Source: Sphagnum compactum (Eukaryota). Taken from it: a stretch of 64,000 nt of DNA. Location of the stretch: assembly GCA_965153455.1 (NCBI GenBank), contig OZ234494.1:1302001-1366000 (forward strand), given 5' to 3'. Positions within the stretch are counted from its first letter, which is position 1, and each line of letters starts with the position of its first letter. A model generated the notes under the pieces. It was not told where the DNA came from and ran no database searches. It was given only the letters and a program-made list of their open reading frames with translations. Of this stretch, positions 34,881-64,000 are shown one piece after another. The position numbers were made by a program, and so were the translations under genes.

Positions 34881-36535
34881 CGGATTGATTGCGGGGAAGG
34901 GGGGAAGGTGGAGACAACTAGGAGAGGCATTGTGGCGCGGGCTGGGGTGACAGAAGGGGGGGGAGGAGGAGGAAGAGGAGGAGGCGACCCCAGCAGAGAC
35001 GACCCCACATCGTTGAAAGACGGGGATCTGTCGTTGGGCTACGCGTACGCGCGCAACCTCCCTTCCACTGCTGCTGCTGCTCTCACCAACAACCCCATAC
35101 CCTGGGGTCGGCCCCCCCCAGTGTATGGCACGCACCACCACCATCACCGCGAAGTCTACCAGAGCCTATTGAGCCGAGGTGAGGAAGATCAGTATGGAGG
35201 AGGAGCGCATGGAGGAGCAGCTCCTCCTCCTCATGCTGCTTCTCCTCATGTAGTTCTTCACCATGGAGCACTGCATGGAGGAGCTCTTCAAGGGTACGAA
35301 GCCAGCTTGAAAAGAGAGAGTCATCAAAGAAGTGAAGACACAGCAGCAGGCCTTGCGGCCAACAATTTTGACGAGGAGGAAGAAGCGGAGCAGGAAGGTA
35401 GTAGCAATAGCAGCAGCGTGGGAAAGACCACTGCTGCAGACAGAGACAGAGACATCAACAACAACAACCCATCAGCTGCACAGAGCTGGGCACTGGCCGT
35501 GAGGGAGGGAGACGAAGAAGACGCAGCAGCAGCAGCAACGCAGGGCATGAATGTACAAAGCCTGCAACAGCACAATCCCGCACACGCGGGCCCATCTGAT
35601 CCCGACAACCATCTACACCTTCATGGTATCTATTCATCTATTTATGCACTCCCCGCCTCTTGAGAGGATTGATTCTGCTACCTTACAGTTGTTCTCGTCT
35701 GCAGCTTCTCTGTGTGCCGGATTCCTGCTGCTTTGGGTAGCAGCGGGCTTGGTTTAGGTCTGAGATTTTATTATTGTTATTATTATTTTCTTCTGTTGTG
35801 GGTTTTGTGCAAATTCCTTCTTTCTTTCACAAATGGATTCACGTCTGATGCTTCTCTTTCTGTCCGATGTTTCTCTTTCTCTCTTTCACAAATGGGTTCA
35901 CGTCTGATGGGTCTGATGCTTTTCTTTCTTTCTTTCTTTATTTGACAAATGGGTTCACGTCTGATCGGTCTGGTGTTTGTCTTTCTTTCTGTCTTTTACA
36001 AATGGGTTCACGTCTGGTGTTTGTGTTTCTTGATTGGGGGGCGGGGGGGATGAAGAACCACGTGCGGAAGAGCTGTGGGGAGCAACAGTAGGAGGAGGAG
36101 GAGGAGGGAAGGTGAAGGAGGGAGTGGTTGGGCAGGGGCAGGGACAGCAAGTAGTAGGAGGAGGAGCAAGTAGTACGGGAACAACAACAGGATCATCAGC
36201 GTGTCAAGAATGCGGAAACCAAGCGAAGAAAGATTGCTCGTACCAGCGATGTCGAACGTGTTGTAAGAGTCGAGGGTTTGAGTGTACCACGCATCTCAAG
36301 AGTACTTGGGTTCCTGCAGCTAAGCGGCGAGAACGACAGGCGGCTGAATCTGCTGCTGCCGCTGCCGCCTCCGCTGGCCTTCTTCTTCGTCCCAAGTCCA
36401 AGCGCGCTCGATCCCTCGTCGTTGCCAATTCTCTCACCTATACTTCTGCAACGTCTCCCAGAGGAGGCTCTGCTGATCTCAACTCCGCTCATCTCTCTGC
36501 TGCTCCTCATCCTTCTCAACCAAGTAAACTCTCTG

Positions 36536-36587
<52 letters not shown>

Positions 36588-39500
36588 CATTGCATTGCAT
36601 TGCATTGAATTGACTTTCATCTGTCTCAACCAAGTAAAAAAAATGGCTATTATTCCCATCTTTCTCTCATCACACATTGAATTTCTTCATCTCCAATTTC
36701 ATATCTTTCATGTCTCCAATTTCTTGTGTTCCAAAAGGGGTTTCAAACAGCGTAACAATTCCATCATGCATCAAAATTCATCTCCAATTTCATATGTTCC
36801 AATAGGGGTTTCAAATACGGTAAATGTTCTATCCAACTTCAGTGTTCAATTTTGATTTGTGCAATTTTTTTTATGTGTTGGACACGACTATGTGTGATTA
36901 TCCTTTAAAGTGACGCATCTCACTGCATGTCATCCATCTCAATGAAGTAAAATCACTATCTCCATCTCTGGTGATGCATTGAATTTCATCTCCAGTTTCA
37001 TATGTCCCAAAAGGGTTTCAAATAGGTTAAAAGTTTCATCCAACTTTTGTGTTCAATTTTGATTTCTTCAATTTTATCAATGTTTTATGTTTCGGACAAG
37101 ACTGTGTGTGATCATCCTTCTCAGCTTATTCCTTTCTTTTGCCACATGCTGGTTTTCACAATTGGGTCTTTTTTTCATAATTGCATCTTGATCGTGGCAT
37201 GGTAGGTTGGTAATCCAAGTATCTGTGTTCCCAAAGGGGTTCAATGGGGTCAAGGTTCCATCCATCTTTTGTGTTCATTCTGACTTTTGCATTTTCTTTG
37301 ATGCTTTTATGTTTTGGACAAGACTCTGTGATCATCCTTCTCAGCCTATTCCTTTCACTATCGAGTCTTTGTTCATAATTGGATCTTTGGCTTGGCATGC
37401 TAGGTTGATTGCTCTCTCAGCCAGCTTCTGACTTTGTGAGATTGATGTGGCATTATTTTTGGGGAGGTTTAGAAGTTCCCCACACAGATATGTTCTGGGG
37501 GTGCTGGTGTATTTTGATCAGGTGTTTAGTTTAAGGTTTTTCAGAGCTGCTTGCCTGTGGACTTTGGAAGCTATGGATGGGAAATTATTTTACCAATATA
37601 AGAAAAAAGATGGAAAGGCAACCTAAGGGTATCTCACCATGCATGGATAAACACTGCTATATATCTCAATGAGTATCTTCCGTTACTAGGAATTTTTTTC
37701 CCTGTTTTCTCTGGTGCAGTGGTTTTGTTATTATGGTTCATATTTTGTTTTTCCTTCCAGTCAAGTTGTCCCTGGGTGTTTGTTCTCATTGAGTGATGTG
37801 TTATGGAGTGTGCTGCTATAGTGGTTCATGTCATGCACTGCCTTGAGATGACAACAGTGTTTGTGCTCTTTTATGGAAGGAGATTTCTTGATACTTGTAA
37901 AGAACTCAGAGAAATTTCCTAGTGTATGTGGAGGGCACTTATAGGTGTAAGATCCCTTCCACTCTGAAGGACAAGGTGTAACAACCCTCCCCCTCCTCCT
38001 ACACTTCATGTCTTTGCATGTTTAAGTTCATGATAACATTCGCCTTGCAATCTATGATGGGTGAAGCCCACAGGTGAGGTACATTGCCAACATGCAGGCT
38101 GAACTTGCCTACTACCTCATCCTAGGCCCCTTCTTTTGGGAATGCCCCCATCCCGGGTCCTTTAGCCTACACATGAAACTTATGCTCTTTGTGAAGGAAA
38201 TCAAGTTGCCTGATGTGAGTTGTGGGAAAAAAAACCAAAGTAACCCTTTTGATCCCTGTCTTGATTATGGTTTAAGGGTTTTAAGCCTTGTTTTGCTGCT
38301 CTACCAGGTTAGTGGTTACACTGGATTATACCCACTGTAGTAGGGAGCTGATGAAGTCAGTGTGGAAGTTGTGATAGATAAGTTGCTGTCATACATGTTA
38401 CTGTTGATGGTTCCTGAACAAGTGAGAGACTGTTGTTTTTGTTCATCTTGAAAGTGTTTTTGTGTCTTTTGCTTTTTTGGTTCTGTGTTCTTCTGTTTTC
38501 TTCCCAGTTCTGTAAGTCCTTATCTGGAGTCTTTCTTTGACTTAAAAGGAAAAGTTTCAACCTTGTTCTGGCATTCTTAATTGTGAATATGGAGATTTTT
38601 TGATGCTCATGAGAATTATCATTATTTTTACTGCTCTAACTGCAAACCTTATGTTCTAAAAATTGCCCAGCATCAGCAAAGGGTGGACTTCCTCCAGAAG
38701 TGAGAGCGCAGGCACTCTTTAAGTGTGTGAGATTAATGGGTGTGGAGGATGGGGAGAATGAGTTTGCATACCAGGCAACTGTCAAAATTGGGGGCCACAT
38801 TTTCAAAGGTGTGTTGTACGATCAAGGTCTCGACAGTGGCCAAGTCGCTGCTGCACCATCATCATCACTGGGCGACTTACAGCTTGGTGGCAGCCGAGGT
38901 GGCATGCCATCATCTTCTGCCCTGATTGACCCCGCATCTTTGTATGTCTCTGGAAGTGCACTCTTGGGAGGTCAGCCCCTTGACTTAACAGTTCAAACAC
39001 GTCTTTATTCGTCATCTTCTCATTTTCTGTGTGTGTGTGAGAAAACCCAATTATATGACAGCAATTTCTGAATGAATGATGTTTCTGGAGATTCACAAAG
39101 GGTGGGTGTTTTCTGTTTCTGGGTGGTTGGGATGAATGCAGCTTTGCGATAAGTAAAAAGTACATCGGGGGTGGCAGCAGATGAAGGGATTTTTTTGGGT
39201 GAAACATTTTCCGAATCAGTCCTGGTTCCTTTGTGCAGGGAAGTAGTTTTGTTTGCACCAAAAATTTGTAGAGGAGCAGTTGTTATGCTAGGTTTTGTTT
39301 CTGCAGACCAAGAAACTGGAATTTTTTTTGTTTGGGGGGTCAACTTTGTGCCAAATTGTGTCCATCAAATTTTGAAAACTTTTTGTTCATTTTTCTCACT
39401 CAACCCTGAAAATGATTGCCCATGGGTTGAGTGAACGAAATGAATGACTACTGAGAGTTTGCTTTGTTGCCTTTGGGGGTTGATTCAGGGTAATGTAATC

Positions 39501-42500: not shown

Positions 42501-43241
42501 TCAAAAGGCTAGTTACACAATCCAATCCTTGTATCGGTTTCACACCCAAAAAAAACAAAACAAAAAGAATGTTGAATCAGGTTGAGATCATAAAAACCTA
42601 AACCCTTGAGTTTAATACTCCAAAAATCAAAGAACTTGCCAACATCGATTCGGACCCATAAATATGCAAAAGATACAACGAACTTCAAAAGGGCTAATAC
42701 AAGGAAACAATTGGTTTTTCATTTGAGAGTAATGGTTGGCCGAGGTGATGGCATTTACATAAATATCACATTTCTATATTGTCTATAGTGATTTCTGCTA
42801 AGCTTAATTAATTGTGATGATCAACCTACTTGTATCTTAACAATCTCAATTTACATCGAATTGGCTTTTTCAAGGTATGGTGGAAATTACTCCTCTAATT
42901 GGAATTCTACTTCACAATGTTACAACTCTTGGAAAGGAGCGAGAGACCTTTTTCGCACACTAGATTTGAATTTACTTCCATAGAGCTATGGGTACTAAAA
43001 CTACAAACATAAGCCAAAAAGCCTCTTCCTTGTTGATGGAAGAGAGCATCCAAATTTGCCTCCAGGTGGTTCTTAGGGTTTAGGGTTACATTTGAGTTGA
43101 GGGGGGTGGTTTAAATTGAAGCCTTGACATTTGCAGAGGGTTTGGTGCCACAGAAAGTTACTCTCATCATCAACAAGTGACAAGAAAGGTCCCAAATTAA
43201 GAAACTAAGGTCCCAAAGAAGCTCAGTGGTCCCAGCTTAGT

Positions 43242-43267
43242 AACCCTAAACCCTAAACCCTAAACCC
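43242..43267 (-). repeat. Interstitial plant telomere-type repeat (CCCTAAA)n; other short tracts near 15547, 17245, 17485, 20827, 22205, 23362, 29307, 40620 and 43073
   Basis: aaccctaaaccctaaaccctaaaccc is directly visible; each tract has 2-4 units. Confidence 0.85.
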
Positions 43268-43343
43268 ATTCTTTCTTTTGGTATGGTGATGATCATCTAT
43301 AGACATTGCACAAGAGGTAGAAATTGAAGCCTTGGATAATTCT

Positions 43344-44956
43344 CTAATTACTTTTAGGTGGATGGGTTTCGGGGTCTCTATAGTCATCAAAGAAACCATC
43401 ACTAGAAGAAGAAGAAGAAGAAGAAGAAGAGTGGGAGAATTTTGTACTGGAGGAGTTGGAATCTTGAGTGCCTTTGATTGATAGTAGTTTTCGCCTGACC
43501 CTCACTACTTGTCTTTGAGCAGTTACAACCACAGCTGGCTGAGATGAACTCAGCCTTGTCTTATGATGATGATGATGATCTCTAACCATAATATTCCACA
43601 TTGCACTCTTCCAGATCTCGGTGATGAACTCTAGTAGCAGATTTGATGTGGTTATAACATGAGTCTCCAACATGTTAAATTTGTGATTCAGTGCAGTTAT
43701 ATTATGCGGTGGTCCAAGCACTCGACCAGGTTGATGCAGAAGTATGTCATGTGATGGCTGCCGCCTCCATTTTGATCTATGTCTGAAAGTCCTCCATCCG
43801 TGTGCAGCTTCTTTTTTGAAACTCAATGAGTAACTTGATGAACTAGTGGAGTGTAATTTGGGATGATTAGCTCCTGGCTGCATGGCATGATGATTTGCCA
43901 GGTCCTTAGACTGCTGCAACTGTGTTGTAATTGATTGTTGTTCTATGTGATGTGTCTGCCATAGTCACCAAGAAAAAAAATTGAGAAGAAAATTGCGAAA
44001 TTTTTGGTTAGTTTGCACAAATTTGGTCCAAGATTTGAACCAGTGCAGCAGATCTCTTGAAGGTGGTTAACACAGCTTGAGGGATTGAGCTTATAGAGAT
44101 CTAGATCCACTCCTTCAGCTCCAGGCTAAAATTCAACAATACTAATCCCAGAGCTCTGCGGGTGTTATGATTTGCATCATGGAAGCAAGAAGATTGCACC
44201 CAGTCTGATCCCCCAGAGAAGAGTGCAACTCAGTATGATCCGCAGAGCTGCCTAGCTAAAATTTAGATGATTACAGCCTCTTTGCATCAATTGCAAGTGA
44301 ATCTAGAATCAAATCACAATTAGAAGAGCTTGAAGCTTGAAATTTCTTGGAGCTTGAAAACTTTTCTTACATTCAATTTTCTTGTTGAAGTTGATGCATC
44401 CAGGTGGCTGAGATCTTGCACTACTGCAACCTGGACCTTGATCGCCACATTTTCCTCTATAACATTGATGAATCTTTCATGCTGCTGTTGATCTAGTCCT
44501 GTAAAAAACCATGGAAACAAAAATCACGGAAAACCTTCAGCTGCAAGATTAATTATAAAAGCATAGATTGCGAAAAAGCTCGACCTGCAAAGCTTCGTAG
44601 ATCAAAACACAGCAGCTAAGCGATCTTAGAAAATTGATTGCAGCACTTATATAAACATGCACATGATCGACGAGTCCGTCCATATATGCAAAGCCCGTGA
44701 TTGACACGACCACCAGCTGCTGCAAGACAGCGGCCCCGAGATTAGTACCAGTACTAGGACGTCGATCGACATGGCTGCACGCGGAACTGAATGAAGAAGT
44801 GCAGCTGCTGATGATCAACAACACGGTGTGGATCAAGACATGAAGAGCTACACTAGTGCAGGTACTGGTACACCACGAGAATGCAATAGTGGCGGCTATT
44901 GGAGTACCACCATCACGCCAGCTTCGTATTCTCCTAGTCCCAGCAGAGTCGACCAT
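43344..44956 (-). CDS. RGF/GLV/CLEL-type tyrosine-sulfated peptide precursor. Exons 44956-44749, 44498-44371, 43955-43344; 315 aa; predicted mature peptide DYRDPETHPPKSN (43385-43347)
   Basis: The last 13 residues before the stop fit the RGF/GLV pattern DY-x-x-P-x-x-HPP-x-x-N (Arabidopsis RGF1: DYSNPGHHPPRHN). A basic RVRRKLL motif precedes it. Exon 1 has a hydrophobic segment (VALHVLIHTVLLIISS). Junctions ACT G|gtacta...ttttttacag|GA CTA (phase 1) and AAT|gtaaga...ggcag|ACA (phase 0) join three ORF-track ORFs in frame (208+128+612 = 948 nt). Confidence 0.82.
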
Positions 44957-45164
44957 TCTGATCTCACAGCTGCTTTTGCATAGTAGCTGCTGCACGTTGG
45001 TTGATTCTCCTTAGACTCCTCGCACGGCCTACTTGTCCGGCCGGCTACTAGACTTGCATATTCGATCTGTTATGGCGGCGTTCTAAAGGACCATGAAACT
45101 AGCTAGATACTAAAGTTCGACAGGTAGCTGCCACTCATATTAGCCTCATCATCAATATTCTCAG

Positions 45165-45940
45165 GTGCAGCAGCAGCAGCAACAACAAATGGGTTTCTTT
45201 CTTGAATCTTTTGTTTTGCACCTCCTTAGAATCAAAAGAGCAGAAGCAGTAGCAGCAACAAGAGGGCTTCTGCTTTCTTCTTTCTTTTTGTCTCCTTAGA
45301 AATCAAAAGAGCATTAATTTGGGATCCAGCAGAAGCAACACCAACAACGGAAAGGACTTCTTCTTTCTTTCTCTCTCTTGCACCTCCTTAGAATCAAGTG
45401 AGCACTGGGATCCACCAGCAGCAGCAGCAACAACAACAACAAAAGGACTTAGCCTTTAAGTTCTTTCTTTCTTTTGCACCTCCTTTGAAATCAAAAGAGC
45501 ATTGGGATCCAGCAAAAACAACAACAACAACAACAACAAAAGGACTTCTTTCTTTCTTTCTTTCTTTCTTTCTTTTGCACCAGCTTCTTAGAAATCAAAA
45601 GAGCATTGGGATCCAGCAATAAGTTGAAAGCACTTTCTTTCTTTCTTTCTTTTGCACCAGCTTCTTAGAAATCAAAAGAGCATTGGGATTCAACAACAAC
45701 AACAACAACAACAACAACAGGACTTTCTTAGTTCTTTCTTTCTTTCTTTCTTTCTTTGTTGTTTCTTTGCTTTTGCTGCAGCTTCTGAGAATGAAAAGGG
45801 CATTGGGATCTGCAGCAGCAACAACAAAAGCACTGATCAACAACTTGTTTCTTAATGCATGTGTTGAACTTTGGTTTGCAGCTGAATGTGATGAGAATGC
45901 AAAAGCAAGGCTGCTGCTTGCATTGGGATCCAGCGACAAT
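45165..45940. repeat. Compound minisatellite, ~7-8 units of ~75-120 bp, immediately upstream of the RGF-like gene
   Basis: Recurring core tttgcacc(tc/agct)tcttagaaatcaaaagagcattgggatccagca, followed by variable (CAG/CAA)n, aaggact and (TTTC)n. Confidence 0.9.
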
Positions 45941-48900
45941 TTGGAAGTCAGTGGTGGGGGGATGAAGAAGGCTGCTGCTGCATCTTGGGAGTGGCACCAG
46001 CGCCATACATACATTACCTACATACATACATACATACATATGCATTCATGTCTGACATGCTTTTCTTACATGCATATACATACATGTCTGACATGCTTTT
46101 CTGACACCACCAACCATACTTACATGTAACCCTAATGCATCAAATTTATTATTACTGTGTAGTTAGTACCCTCCCGAACACATTTGGGCAACAAACAAAC
46201 TGTCGAATAATTAATTTAATTGAATTTCAAATCTTAACTTCGGCAGTTGGGTTTTTTTTACTCTGAAATTTTTGGCAGGTAATAAATAAATAATAAATAA
46301 TGTTTATAAAAATAATAAAAATCAACATGACTTTTTTAGGGTTTAGTCTATTATGTGTGTCTAAATTGTCATCATCTTATTAAATTCAAGGATTGGCTGA
46401 TCTAAAGTTCCAAAAAAACCCAACCGTCTGAATAATTTCAGAATTTAATTTTATAAAAAAAATTGTTAAAATTTCAACACAAGTAATAAAATAATAATAA
46501 TTTTTCAAAAATTCGACAAAATAAAAAATAATTTAACTTATGTCGAAACTGTTCATGTACTATTGTATTTCTTTTCGACACAAATTTCACACTTCCCCAG
46601 CAATTCGAGAGACTTCATTTCTACCAGTATCAGCTGCAGCTCTTCTTCTGTAACATGCTAAACCATCAAAAGCCATAAATAAAATAGCCACTAATAGAAT
46701 AACCACCAATAACCATTAATAAAATAATCACTAGTACCTAACTTATAAACGAGTTTTACACAAAATAACTTATCTATTAAAATAATGTGGAATTTGAAAA
46801 ATGAATGGACATTAGTGAAAAAACATCTTCAATTGCAATCACAATAATAAGAACCATAGCATGTGTAATTAATGTTTGGTTTTCATGTTTTAATGTCAAA
46901 AATTGTACCAAGGTTACAAAATTTTAAAATATTTTTACATGAACATGCTTTTTTAATACATTATAGAAACATGTGGAATAAATTGAATTAAATCTAATAA
47001 TATAAAATACTCAAAAGCACACACAAAACACTAATATAACATGTATGAGCAAATAGCGCATGGTGTCATTAGTCTTTTTTACTTTGTTCCACACTCACTC
47101 ACAAAATGTGAAGGCTGAGTGAGCTACAATCTCACTCCTGCTGAGTTCTAACTTGTTTGCACACTCCTTCCTCTACCATCAAGTACTACTGCATTGTACA
47201 AAAAGCATGACACAATGGATGGATGCTTTCAACAAATTTCATTGACGAGTAATCGAAAATGGTATATTGGGAATTTTTTGGAATCCTTCGTATGGTAGTC
47301 CATGGACCATTCCAAAAACAATTTCATAAATAACTACCTCATTTTCGAGCCTAACAATATTTCATTTATTTCTTAATAACTACTTCTTTTTCTTATTAAC
47401 TTTTTTAATAACTATCTCCCACTATATAATAATTGGGTTATGTGACGAAGGTAGTATATGATCTATGGTGGGAATGCACTTGGAGATCTTAACAGCCCCA
47501 GATCACTATATTTCAAAGGCCCTTTCTTAAGATCCTTTAGTATTCCACACAACTTAAAGGAGCCCTCTTTAAAAGTTAGCCCAATTGGGTCATCTTTATT
47601 TTGGGGGAAAGGGCCAAAGCTGATCAATTCTAGATATCTTCTTCCAAAAGTTGTTGCTTAACTGTAGTTTGTCGTCAAGCAAACTTATTAGCTTACCATA
47701 GTCAACAACATCCAGCAGCTCTAGCATCTTGCTTTCTGACATTGGGTTGATTGTTAAAATTGCCATCCTCTCTTCTTGCACCAAGCTAGCTAGGGAGGAG
47801 GAAGCTTGCAGGATGGCAGTTTGGGTAGAAGAAAAATTCCCCATCCTTTAAAATATGGCCAGGGGGAGAACACCAGGAGAACCTAGGGACAGTTATGCCA
47901 ATTTTGAGATGGGCAGTTGCAGACATAACATTGTTGTAAACCCTAATGTTAATTATAAACTTGGGTTAGCAGATTTGGTTGTAAGTTTGGGTGAGAATGA
48001 ATCCTACACCACAATCCATATCTTGGAGCCCTTGATTATTTTGTTTTTTTAATTGCCCAAATTTCCCAAAGGTCTAGTGATTATTATTATTATACACATG
48101 ACAGAATTTGGAAAACAAAAAAAAATCACACTTTGTTTGTTAAGGATTAGAGTATGATCTCCATCCACACCCTCTCTTTTTTTTTCTGGGTCTCTACCAT
48201 TGTTTCCCACATCTCACATTGAGTCTTAATTATTTCCCCATCCTCACCCATAAAACATGAAAGATTGGACAATATAAAGTGAATGCCTATTTAAATGCTA
48301 ACAACACTTAAGCCAATTAAAAAACATCATTCTCTTTTCTAGGTCCTTTCGATGACATCAAAAATATCATAAGCATATTTTACTTACGGGTACAAACTCA
48401 AAGTTCACATTATTAAAATAATGTGCCAAAGGCGATTGTATTTTATCAACCCTTGGTTTAAACTTTACAATGATAAATACCCCAATTTACAACGGAGCAT
48501 TATAATTAGTACAAGTTGCCCCCTCACTAATTAATAGAAGCACAACTAAATGTGCATTCTTTTGATGTAAAAATCCATTGTTGGGAAGGTTCTCACTTTT
48601 TGGAACAACCTTTGGAACTGGCTGATAATGGCAGGGTATGTATATATGTGTATGTATGTATGTATGTATGTATACCCTTGGCAGACGGTTCTCAAAACCA
48701 ACTATTGGTGAACACTAAAAGCCTGCCCATTTTTTTCACATGAAAGTGCTACTACAAGGAAGAAGAACTACTAATGGCCATGGAGAAACAAAAGTACAAA
48801 AGTTGTATTTGATTTGTGGATCATTAAAATTGTGATATTATTATAAGAGATCATAATTCAATTGTCAAGAGAGCTAGTAACAATTTGTTTTTGTTGCACA

Positions 48901-57339: not shown

Positions 57340-59006
57340 AACATTTTCATATGGTAGAAACAATGCATGACATTATTTTACAAGCCATAATGATGGTTGT
57401 GTAAAAAAGTCAGTTCCTTGTTGTAAGTTGTGATGAGGTCACTACTGTAGACAACCAAAGCTAGTTGTCTATTCATGTATATGTATTTGAAGAATGGAAG
57501 ATAATCCCCATACTCTTTAACTTGCATAAAATTGTGGATGGAGAGATTTTCAAAACAACTAGACCTTCATCAATATAGTTTGGTGAAAATTGGAGATGTG
57601 ATTAAAACAAACATGGCCAACAAGCTCATGTATTTTGGAACAAATGGAGTGATAATATTTTAAGGTGTCAAAATGGGAGTTACCACATAGCTGGTGCAAA
57701 AACATGTTCCATTTGTGAATGATGTGTGTTGCATAACACACCACATAAACAGAGCCATTCAAACTTTGGATGGTTTGAGGTTGTTGGGCAAGATTGAAAT
57801 TCCACTTGCATTAATGTATAACTACTTCGCTCACAACCTTAAACACCATTTGGAAATATATAAGTTTGTTGAGTGCAATAGCAACAAGATCTTAAAGAAC
57901 ATCAAGACCCAATGGATGTCTATGTTGTCACCTTCCAAGAGAGTGTTGAATGAGTATCAAATGTTGGTTGTGAAAATGGTTGAAGACAATGTAAGCATTG
58001 TCATTATTAAAGCTAACTATGAACTTCTTTATGATGTGGAAAGATTGTTGGGTCTAGCTTGTGTCCTTCCCTTGTTGGAGTTGGTGCAAGGATTAATCAA
58101 ATTTGCATAAAGGTGTGACAGTTTCATATGTGACTTTATGTTGTTCTTAAGGTTTGTGAAGTAGACCTATATAATTTATATTATGATCTTAAAAAAAAGT
58201 ATCCATCTTCACACTTTGGTGCTTTCATTGATCTTGTTAAGCACATCCATGACCAATTGTGCTTATGCCGGTGGAAGGAACCTACCACCTAGATTGAATA
58301 CATTGTTTTTTTTTTGGAGGTAAACTTTATAATATGCTACATTTCACCAACGCAACCACAATGGAGGTGGGCCTTGTAACTAGGGAAATTAGGGCTAGAA
58401 TTGTGGATTCTATGAAGCAACAATGTTTTATAATAACTGCAAGTTTGATAATTAAATTGAAATGGTGATTTTTAACATGGAAGTTGTTGAATGCAATTGG
58501 GGTGATCTACCTTCAATATTGGCTTGTAGAGGTTGAAATTACGTTTCAGGAATACATAAGGCTTATTCAAATACATTTTGGGCACAACCAAGGCATGGGG
58601 TACTTTCGGTACATTTAGTGGGCCAATGATCAACCTTATTTTGCTTGATCAACAATCATTTTTTTTCAAACTAACAATGTAAAATCATTGCCAAAATGCC
58701 ATGTTGCTTTTCCATGATTGCAACCTAACCACTTGATTGTGAGAAAAACTTGGGTCTAGGGGGGTTCTAAATCAACATCTTTTAGAGCGATTGAAGTTGG
58801 TCAAATTATGCATGATTATGGTGTTGGGCAACATGGAGGACAGACACATTTTCTTGGATATAACATTCATCAAAACAAAGTTAAGGAATCACCTAATTAT
58901 GCATCTAAACCTTGTCGTACAAATGTATGCACAATTTTTTTGCAAACTTGAAACCTTTCCTCTTTACACAACAATGTGCAAGTGGAATGAAAACCAAGTG
59001 TGGTAA
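57340..59006 (+). pseudogene. Decayed hAT-superfamily (ZNF862-like) transposase: catalytic core and C-terminal dimerisation region
   Basis: Translation across stops and frameshifts gives FLVVSCDEVTTVDNQS*LSIHVY (first catalytic D), C-x2-HH-x-N (CITHHINRA), KILKNIKTQWMSML (T-R-W-like motif) and MIMVLGNMEDRHIF...IKTKLRNHL (hAT dimerisation-like). Confidence 0.85.
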
Positions 59007-62690: not shown

Positions 62691-63977
62691 TTATCGCCAA
62701 CGTCCTACTCTCTCGCGCTCATGCGCAGACTCGCTATACTTGCTCCAGCAGTAATCTTTGTTAAGAGGCACCTTGCCAATTTTATTGCCAGAAAACGGAA
62801 AGTCGCCAAAGCTGCTCCTCAACACTCCCCTCAGCTGTGTCTTGCTCAGAAAGGTAAGGACGCCTGTGTTGACGTTGCCTTCATAATCAAGCTGGATCTC
62901 ACCCTCTCCAGTTTCTCGGCCTCGCCATGAGAACTCAACGTCCTCGGCCGGAAATTTGGATGATGATAATGGAGGTTCCGTGGTGGAGCGAAGAATGCCT
63001 TTCAGAATCCCCATCCGGAAGTTTGCACACAGCAGGCGAGAGGTAGTCATCACAGCTGAGGGGTTCTGTTTTTTCTTCTGGTTGCTTTGATCATCGTCAG
63101 AATGACAACCCGAGCTGTAATCCGAGCAGCCTTCTTCTTCTTCTTCTTCCTCTGGTAGAGGCCTGTGGAAAAAAATGGACATCCTTCTATCGGCTTTTCG
63201 GTACTCCTTGTCCATTTTGCTGCAATCAATCGACCACTCACCCTCTACATCCACAAACTTTCCCTTCCCACCTGCTTCACATTCCTTGCGCATCGCTTCC
63301 GTCTTCTTCCTCTTGGCATTTGTCTCCTCATCTTCCCACAGCTTGCGCTTCTTCTCAATCTCACTCTTGCGGTCCCAGACAGCTGCTCGGTTCTTACCAA
63401 CCACAATCCAACGGGCACCAGCGTCACCAGGAGCATCAGCACTAATTGTGTGCAAACCCAACTCTTCAGCAGCTTCATGTACTCGTTGTCTTTGTTGGAT
63501 CTGAAGCACCAACACCTCTTCCTTCCCCGTTTCACCAAACTTCTCGCGAAGAAATCGATGGCTATCGAATTCAGCCTTCGCATTGTCGTCCAACCTAAGG
63601 TACTGCTTATCCCTCGCCTTCGCATTCTCTAGTAAGAACCGCCGATTAAGCTCCAGTTCAAGCTGAACCAGATGCTCCGGAGGACCTTGCAAGCCATTGG
63701 AGAGGGCAGTTTTGAGGCTATCACTCAGAGTGGCGATGGTGCTCGCAGATTTGATCTTGCACCCATACAGTTGCAGTTGAGCGAGCCACCAATCTTTCGA
63801 TCGCTTCAATGGGGTTGCCGTCGTGCTTTTCCGCTTAGGAAAAAGCCAGGCATTCAGGTTGTCGATTGTCTCTCGACATTGGCCCTTGTACGTAAGACCT
63901 GCACCAGAGCACTCAAAGGGAGGCGAAGAAAGGGGTTTGATAACAATAGGTTCAAGCATGGGAAGGCTCAAATCCAT
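62691..63977 (-). CDS. Intronless 428-aa hypothetical protein with a central R3H-like segment and an acidic low-complexity linker; motifs resemble uncharacterised fungal proteins
   Basis: Longest ORF in the window, clearly GC-richer than its flanks, with a strong gccATGG start context. Contains QRQRVHEAAEELGLHTIS...RWIVVGK (R-x3-H), N-terminal WWLAQLQLYG, and C-terminal FSWRGRETGEGEIQ...N.G.L.F...WSKYSESAHERERVGRWR. Confidence 0.85.
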   Translation of the reverse strand: MDLSLPMLEPIVIKPLSSPPFECSGAGLTYKGQCRETIDNLNAWLFPKRKSTTATPLKRSKDWWLAQLQLYGCKIKSASTIATLSDSLKTALSNGLQGPPEHLVQLELELNRRFLLENAKARDKQYLRLDDNAKAEFDSHRFLREKFGETGKEEVLVLQIQQRQRVHEAAEELGLHTISADAPGDAGARWIVVGKNRAAVWDRKSEIEKKRKLWEDEETNAKRKKTEAMRKECEAGGKGKFVDVEGEWSIDCSKMDKEYRKADRRMSIFFHRPLPEEEEEEEGCSDYSSGCHSDDDQSNQKKKQNPSAVMTTSRLLCANFRMGILKGILRSTTEPPLSSSKFPAEDVEFSWRGRETGEGEIQLDYEGNVNTGVLTFLSKTQLRGVLRSSFGDFPFSGNKIGKVPLNKDYCWSKYSESAHERERVGRWR

Positions 63978-64000
63978 GGCTAGTACTCACAGTCGCACGC

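Follow-up and report, generated by a model that had tools for sequence, protein, structure and literature searches.

The mature forms of RGF/GLV/CLEL peptides have been established for Arabidopsis RGFs only, and these act in roots. According to PMC7162652, the signal peptide of Arabidopsis CLEL6 and CLEL9 is removed in the ER, SBT6.1 cuts the precursors at RRLR/RRAL-type sites in the cis-Golgi, TPST then sulfates a Tyr that needs an Asp before it, and Asp-dependent subtilases such as SBT3.8 release the peptide after the Golgi. RGI receptors are described in PMC8462819 as recognising the Asp-sulfoTyr via an RxGG motif. The residues that define RGFs in PMC8329595 are D1, Y2, P5, H8, P9, P10, and N13, with His8 marking group H, and the same source does not treat a signal peptide as a requirement outside angiosperms. 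RGF precursors are usually 79-182 aa long with a survey maximum of 277 aa according to PMC8708909, and PMC13503966, in which precursors were filtered by length, gives 39-277 aa as typical.

RGF-like genes of rootless bryophytes are already in print. MpRGF of the rootless liverwort Marchantia polymorpha (Mp6g09180; DYAEPDTHPPESN) belongs to group H, is encoded by a gene that is single copy in liverworts, and has been tested in plants: it causes RGF-like root phenotypes in Arabidopsis, and its overexpression dwarfs Marchantia. A signal peptide is predicted for MpRGF1 in PMC8708909. From 1KP transcriptomes, Furumizu & Sawa (2021; PMC8329595) reported RGF-like sequences ending in R/K-G/S-N in early-diverging mosses and none in Bryophytina or hornworts. 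Their moss alignment holds 22 sequences, 17 of them from Sphagnum; entry lengths are 116-192 aa for Andreaea and 197 aa for the longer one from Takakia, and among the 24 liverwort entries MpRGF has 198 aa and the longest 250. P. patens is described as being without both RGF and RGI (PMC8708909, PMC8462819), whose TPST, like that of M. polymorpha, is reported in PMC8462819. The five bryophytes sampled in PMC13503966 do not include Sphagnum, and RGFs with a complete signal peptide are placed there first in ferns.

Gene structure and RNA support

We analyzed a 64,000-nucleotide stretch of Sphagnum compactum DNA (the window). As the initial annotation had proposed, three minus-strand exons, 44956-44749, 44498-44371, and 43955-43344 (208 nt, 128 nt, and 612 nt), join through GT-AG junctions into an in-frame 948 nt that encodes 315 aa and a stop, the protein ending in DYRDPETHPPKSN; the splice model proved exact. 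The features of the locus are as follows.

44957..45240, minus strand: probable 5' leader, covered by an X8 contig (44888-45240) and an X1 contig (44937-45132), which give neither start nor strand
44749..44956, minus strand: coding exon 1 (aa 1-69 and 1 nt), with its ATG in AGAATGG; donor seen in X1 and X8 contigs, N-terminus shared by homologues
44780..44956, minus strand: putative signal peptide or signal anchor (aa 1-59; core aa 36-49, 44810-44851), from hydropathy and paralogue alignment
44499..44748, minus strand: intron 1, 250 nt, GT-AG (GTACTA...TTACAG), phase 1, absent from X1 and X8 contigs
44371..44498, minus strand: coding exon 2 (aa 70-112), from the splice model and RNA contigs
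43956..44370, minus strand: intron 2, 415 nt, GT-AG (GTAAGA...GGCAG), phase 0, absent from X1 and X8 contigs
43344..43955, minus strand: coding exon 3, aa 113-315 followed by the TAG stop, from the splice model and RNA contigs
43581..43646, minus strand: predicted amphipathic helical segment (aa 216-237), from hydrophobic moment, paralogue alignment, and a low-confidence AlphaFold helix
43482..43496, minus strand: candidate site for SBT6.1/S1P-type pre-processing, RRKL(L) at aa 266-270, from its motif, 34 aa before the peptide
43347..43385, minus strand: predicted mature 13-aa group-H RGF-like peptide DYRDPETHPPKSN, from conservation and identity to the published Sppa RCBT-2026026
42902..43343, minus strand: 3' UTR, reaching at least 42902, into which X1 and X8 contigs continue out of exon 3

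Both junctions, 44749/44498 and 44371/43955, were found base-exact in contigs from two of four runs, X1 (a plant metatranscriptome) and X8 (RNA by guess only). Contigs of both carry the joint 43955/44371 with 415 nt skipped and the joint 44498/44749 with 250 nt skipped, each bounded by CT..AC. A single 1199-nt X1 contig carries exon 1 from 44896 onward together with exons 2 and 3, the stop codon, and 3' UTR. These contigs come from relatives a few percent divergent and not from the source genome itself. The 17 runs that are recorded or guessed as RNA and contain the stretch have word shares of only 0.15-0.21, and those among them outside the four runs were given no weight as evidence. The gene had no coverage in runs X24 and X12, which gave short-repeat matches only; in runs of unspecified organism and tissue, with about 12% of X24 read, this is not evidence against expression. 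Among the 40 of 81 substitutions listed for the RNA contigs, 28 are coding, with 11 synonymous, 17 non-synonymous, and no stops, against a synonymous share of 0.23 over all possible changes; the coding constraint in these substitutions is only loose. The sole listed change within the peptide is silent, in the third base of Pro10. The three exon 3 indels among the 12 of 53 listed sum to multiples of three; frame retention of the contigs is seen incompletely in this way, but the intact homologous proteins described below cover the frame question.

Orthologues in other Sphagnum species

A search with exon 3 found eight proteins among 323 candidates at 86-94% identity, and the exon joins of the spliced protein recur in 11 near-full-length database proteins of 306-326 aa, which match it at 93-95% identity. 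Six of the gene models are named by species: BDL97_02G001700 (KAH8968823.1; S. fallax), CY35_02G002300 (KAH9569661.1; S. magellanicum), CAK9216240.1 and CAK9870350.1 (both S. jensenii), CAM6067279.1 (S. tenellum), and CAM6006787.1 (S. balticum). All six are 93-95% identical to the protein here, have 306-315 aa, and keep its start and 13-mer; they bear no RGF label, being entered as hypothetical or unnamed. The gene had been called hidden, a description that does not hold, since its orthologue is already annotated as a gene model in these five species. The last 13 residues are the same in 11/11 near-full-length homologues and in 28/29 of all homologues fetched, so that the DY...HPP..N end is conserved in relatives; the exception, homologue P0007, is changed at position 6 of the 13-mer.

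The gene and its peptide have also been known in print since 2021, and they are ordinary for Sphagnum. The moss table of PMC8329595 (Data Sheet 2, Supplementary Fig. 2) contains Sppa RCBT-2026026 from S. palustre, a 97-aa C-terminal fragment, where here the full three-exon gene is seen. By-eye comparison of this fragment with aa 219-315 gave seven substitutions, two small indels, and an identical 13-mer; judged by sequence, Sppa RCBT-2026026 is the orthologue of the gene described here. Reading the locus as a discovery therefore fails, because PMC8329595 already contains the last 97 aa of its orthologue, ending in the identical peptide, and the models are in public genomes. The gene is real but ordinary, because it was reported in 2021 and a long precursor is normal for peat moss. 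A literature search on Sphagnum with RGI or GOLVEN returned nothing relevant, a weak blank, as names present only in supplements (e.g. those of PMC8329595) escape such a search. The discovery value is thus little, given that the gene's peptide is already published, and the annotation use is modest: hypothetical proteins of full length from five Sphagnum species can be linked to the published 97-aa fragment.

The C-terminal peptide

The gene very probably encodes a group-H prepropeptide of the RGF/GLV/CLEL family. Compared with the definition in PMC8329595, Asp1, Tyr2, Pro5, His8, Pro9, Pro10, and Asn13 are all present in the 13-mer, and the host is Sphagnum, which bears out the proposal of an RGF/GLV/CLEL-type gene in a rootless bryophyte. 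The stop codon directly follows Asn13, placing the peptide at the precursor C-terminus, and its last three residues agree with the R/K-G/S-N ending of moss sequences (PMC8329595). Asp303-Tyr304 is the only DY, the Asp-Tyr substrate motif, of the precursor. The loose pattern DY-x7-P-xx-N-stop has one match in the six frames of the 64-kb window, where 0.007 were expected; for the strict seven-residue pattern, which is taken from the family definition, 5e-7 are expected by chance. No column varies within the peptide (0/13) versus 68/302 elsewhere, with a chance of ~0.04, among 12 near-full-length sequences that are all close kin; taken alone, this invariance among close kin is modest evidence for the family.

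MpRGF is identical to the peptide here at 9/13 residues, and Arabidopsis RGF1/GLV11/CLEL8 has 7/13 in common (D1, Y2, P5, H8, P9, P10, N13), the defining positions among them. Position 12 is H or N in Arabidopsis RGFs versus S here, and the Arabidopsis peptides act in roots, which Sphagnum does not have. Closer relatives are the Sphagnum RGF-like paralogues, comprising the RCBT-2021437 and UHLI-2092094 type (P0033), the RCBT-2025055 type (P0034), and RCBT-2030149. They resemble the gene here in length (276-355 aa), putative signal region, amphipathic segment, RRKL, and the DYxDP..HPPxSN end, whereas overall identity is only ~33-37% and peptide positions 6, 7, and 11 differ. A profile search over 1.84 billion representatives gave five matches, of which two are paralogues (281 and 355 aa), two are unspliced read-throughs of exons, and one is a piece of an orthologue; liverwort and vascular RGFs are out of alignment reach of this search. 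Similarity of the prodomain to MpRGF was not found in the exon 3 and profile searches.

Pfam assigned no families to 5/5 precursors scanned, in a copy that may not include the RGF3 model. In the five nearest ESM Atlas clusters (score 0.87-0.89), 11-67% of the members are assigned to the Pfam families RGF3 or GLV1-2; with such low recognition they are a lead only, pointing to the family. Two other sulfopeptide memberships were considered and rejected. PSY1 is ~18 aa long (DYGDPSANPKHDPGV...) and has only D-Y-x-D-P in common with the peptide, which is followed by a stop after 13 residues. CIF/TWS1 peptides have ~20 aa and a DYxxxxPxPPLxxPxPF pattern, and the 13-aa peptide here is without the PPL core.

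Precursor length, signal region, and prodomain

The precursor had been called unusually long. This holds relative to angiosperms, to the usual 79-182 aa (PMC8708909), which are also the usual lengths of Arabidopsis RGFs, and to the survey maximum of 277 aa, but not within the Sphagnum clade, where 315 aa lies mid-range between 276 and 355 aa; liverwort precursors, too, extend to ~200-250 aa. In PMC8329595, five of the 17 Sphagnum entries have a Met and a signal-like start (276, 283, 322, 344, and 355 aa), and the other 12 are of 63-224 aa and mostly fragments. Short precursors are a tendency of the family and not a criterion, and the accepted Sphagnum members of 276-355 aa depart from it as the gene here does. 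Since Sphagnum precursors lie at or beyond the range cited in PMC13503966, surveys that screen for short precursors would miss Sphagnum RGFs.

At the N-terminus, aa 1-34 are basic and polar, hydropathy peaks at 2.35 over aa 36-50, and a small-residue region runs to Ala59 (...SFSSA59), in which C52, S55, F56, S58, and A59 align in two distant paralogues. The N-terminus is a putative signal peptide with a long N-region, which may be cleaved after Ala59. The hydrophobic core begins unusually late, at aa 36, and this was counted against the family reading. The signal-like N-terminus here, along with the signal peptide predicted for MpRGF1, would argue against the fern origin put forward in PMC13503966. 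An S. fallax isoform of 259 aa, KAH8968822.1 (P0017), is without aa 17-69 and hence without the putative signal region. An alternative GT donor at 44907-44906 (minus strand) inside exon 1 would remove the putative signal region in frame, matching KAH8968822.1; its joint was looked for in the RNA contigs and was not seen.

The prodomain is of low complexity, with His and Ser runs, and the AlphaFold model of the S. fallax orthologue contains no folded domain (mean pLDDT 39.6). Of the prodomain windows that passed a mean-hydrophobicity filter, the segment aa 216-237 has the highest hydrophobic moment, and it is the top amphipathic window in P0033 and P0034 as well. RRKL (266-269) recurs in both paralogues and resembles the RRLR/RRAL sites of Arabidopsis CLEL6 (PMC7162652); an RRxL-type site likewise lies upstream of the peptide in Arabidopsis CLEL6/9. 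Alignment of aa 210-240 scored 48 against P0033, which 0/500 shuffles reached, and 37 against P0034, which 5/500 reached. These scores suggest, weakly, that the segment at aa 216-237 is shared with the Sphagnum paralogues. We hold with considerable confidence to the explanation as a whole, in which the long prodomain would be mostly a low-complexity spacer typical for this Sphagnum clade.

The long prodomain may alternatively be functional in itself: the helix at aa 216-237, freed at basic sites, would be a second product or a sorting or retention element, and the precursor would be anchored in the membrane instead of being simply secreted, the long N-region being able to form a signal anchor. 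That the segment alignment beats 500/500 shuffles with P0033 and 495/500 with P0034, and that none of the three proteins has a more amphipathic window, is in keeping with such a function. However, the score of the whole prodomain was reached by 0/500 shuffles against P0033 but by 20/500 against P0034, which is not clearly above shuffles, and the helix has 4/22 variable columns among orthologues, a proportion close to that of the remaining columns (68/302). The excess of 17 non-synonymous over 11 synonymous changes among the listed substitutions likewise points to loose constraint, and shared ancestry alone suffices for the remnant. We therefore regard a functional prodomain as unlikely. The same low probability attaches to the fuller form of this idea, in which the ~240-aa prodomain is more than spacer, its helix ahead of the RRKL site acting as a second product or Golgi sorting or retention element, and the signal-less isoform from the 44907-44906 donor limits ligand output. 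If true, the helix and the isoform would amount to a moss-specific control layer over a pre-root peptide hormone.

Proposed pathway and receptor

We infer every step after transcription by analogy with CLEL6/9 of Arabidopsis and MpRGF of Marchantia. The hydrophobic N-terminus would direct the precursor into the ER and would be cut near Ala59. In the early Golgi, an SBT6.1/S1P-like subtilase would cleave the RRKL site of the disordered prodomain. Tyr304, beside Asp303, would be sulfated by TPST, and one Pro would probably be hydroxylated. An Asp-dependent subtilase would then release the peptide after the Golgi, and the sulfated peptide would bind an RGI-type LRR-XI receptor kinase. The receptor would in turn adjust cell division and growth of the rootless gametophyte, most likely in the shoot apex and branches, the tissue being a guess. 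The weakest link of this pathway is the presumed RGI receptor in Sphagnum. A literature search for a Sphagnum RGI found nothing on topic, a weak blank in that names confined to figures or supplements are missed.

The peptide could instead be a sulfopeptide of RGF ancestry that signals through another LRR-XI receptor or is an orphan ligand, Sphagnum perhaps having lost RGI like P. patens. RGIs are reported to be absent from P. patens and Anthoceros in PMC8462819, and the first five residues, D-Y-x-D-P, match PSY1 too. On the other hand, RGF and RGI are described in PMC8708909 as sharing their gains and losses and having correlated copy numbers, Sphagnum has kept several RGF paralogues with conserved peptides, and the C-terminal HPP-x-x-N is RGF-like and unlike PSY1. 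We consider another receptor or an orphan ligand very unlikely. A chance ORF or pseudogene, for which the low-complexity sequence, the lack of a Pfam match, and two of four runs without coverage could be cited, is refuted and has next to no probability given that the RNA contigs are spliced exactly, the frame is intact in the five named species, the 28 listed coding substitutions include no stop, and the strict pattern has a minute chance expectation.

The gene, read as a group-H RGF precursor, is one ready candidate ligand for an RGF role in peat moss, where several paralogues persist and later mosses lost theirs.

Neighbouring sequence in the window

An imperfect tandem array of at least seven copies of ~70-120-bp units, mixed with CAA/CTTT microsatellites, lies at ~45170-45950, directly upstream of the RGF gene and overlapping its probable 5' leader, and a 36-bp direct repeat is present at 46031-46102. 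A 294-nt probable leader (44957-45250, minus strand) contains six short upstream ORFs of 3-11 aa; the number of upstream ATGs is about the random expectation, and they were set aside. On the other side, a plus-strand gene at ~34881-39071 converges on the RGF gene from ~4.3 kb away. Two exons, 36034-36855 and 38640-39071, each encode part of its DUF702/PF05142 domain, which marks SHI/STY transcription factors. A 139-aa open frame at 57691-58110 (plus strand), with no Pfam match, gives the impression only of a decayed transposase fragment.

An uninterrupted 431-aa ORF without a Pfam match occupies 62691-63986 (minus strand). Eight of its 20 homologues are organism-named, one being from Ceratodon purpureus (45%), one from the fern Adiantum capillus-veneris (33%), and six from ascomycetes (23-40%), namely Hypocenomyce, Xylona, Chrysothrix, Elasticomyces (twice), and Trichoderma (21% of the query covered). 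No seed plant occurs among these eight named of 20 homologues, which come from a length-limited search. On these matches the ORF is a candidate for gene transfer between fungi and mosses or ferns, and it is possibly more interesting than the RGF gene.
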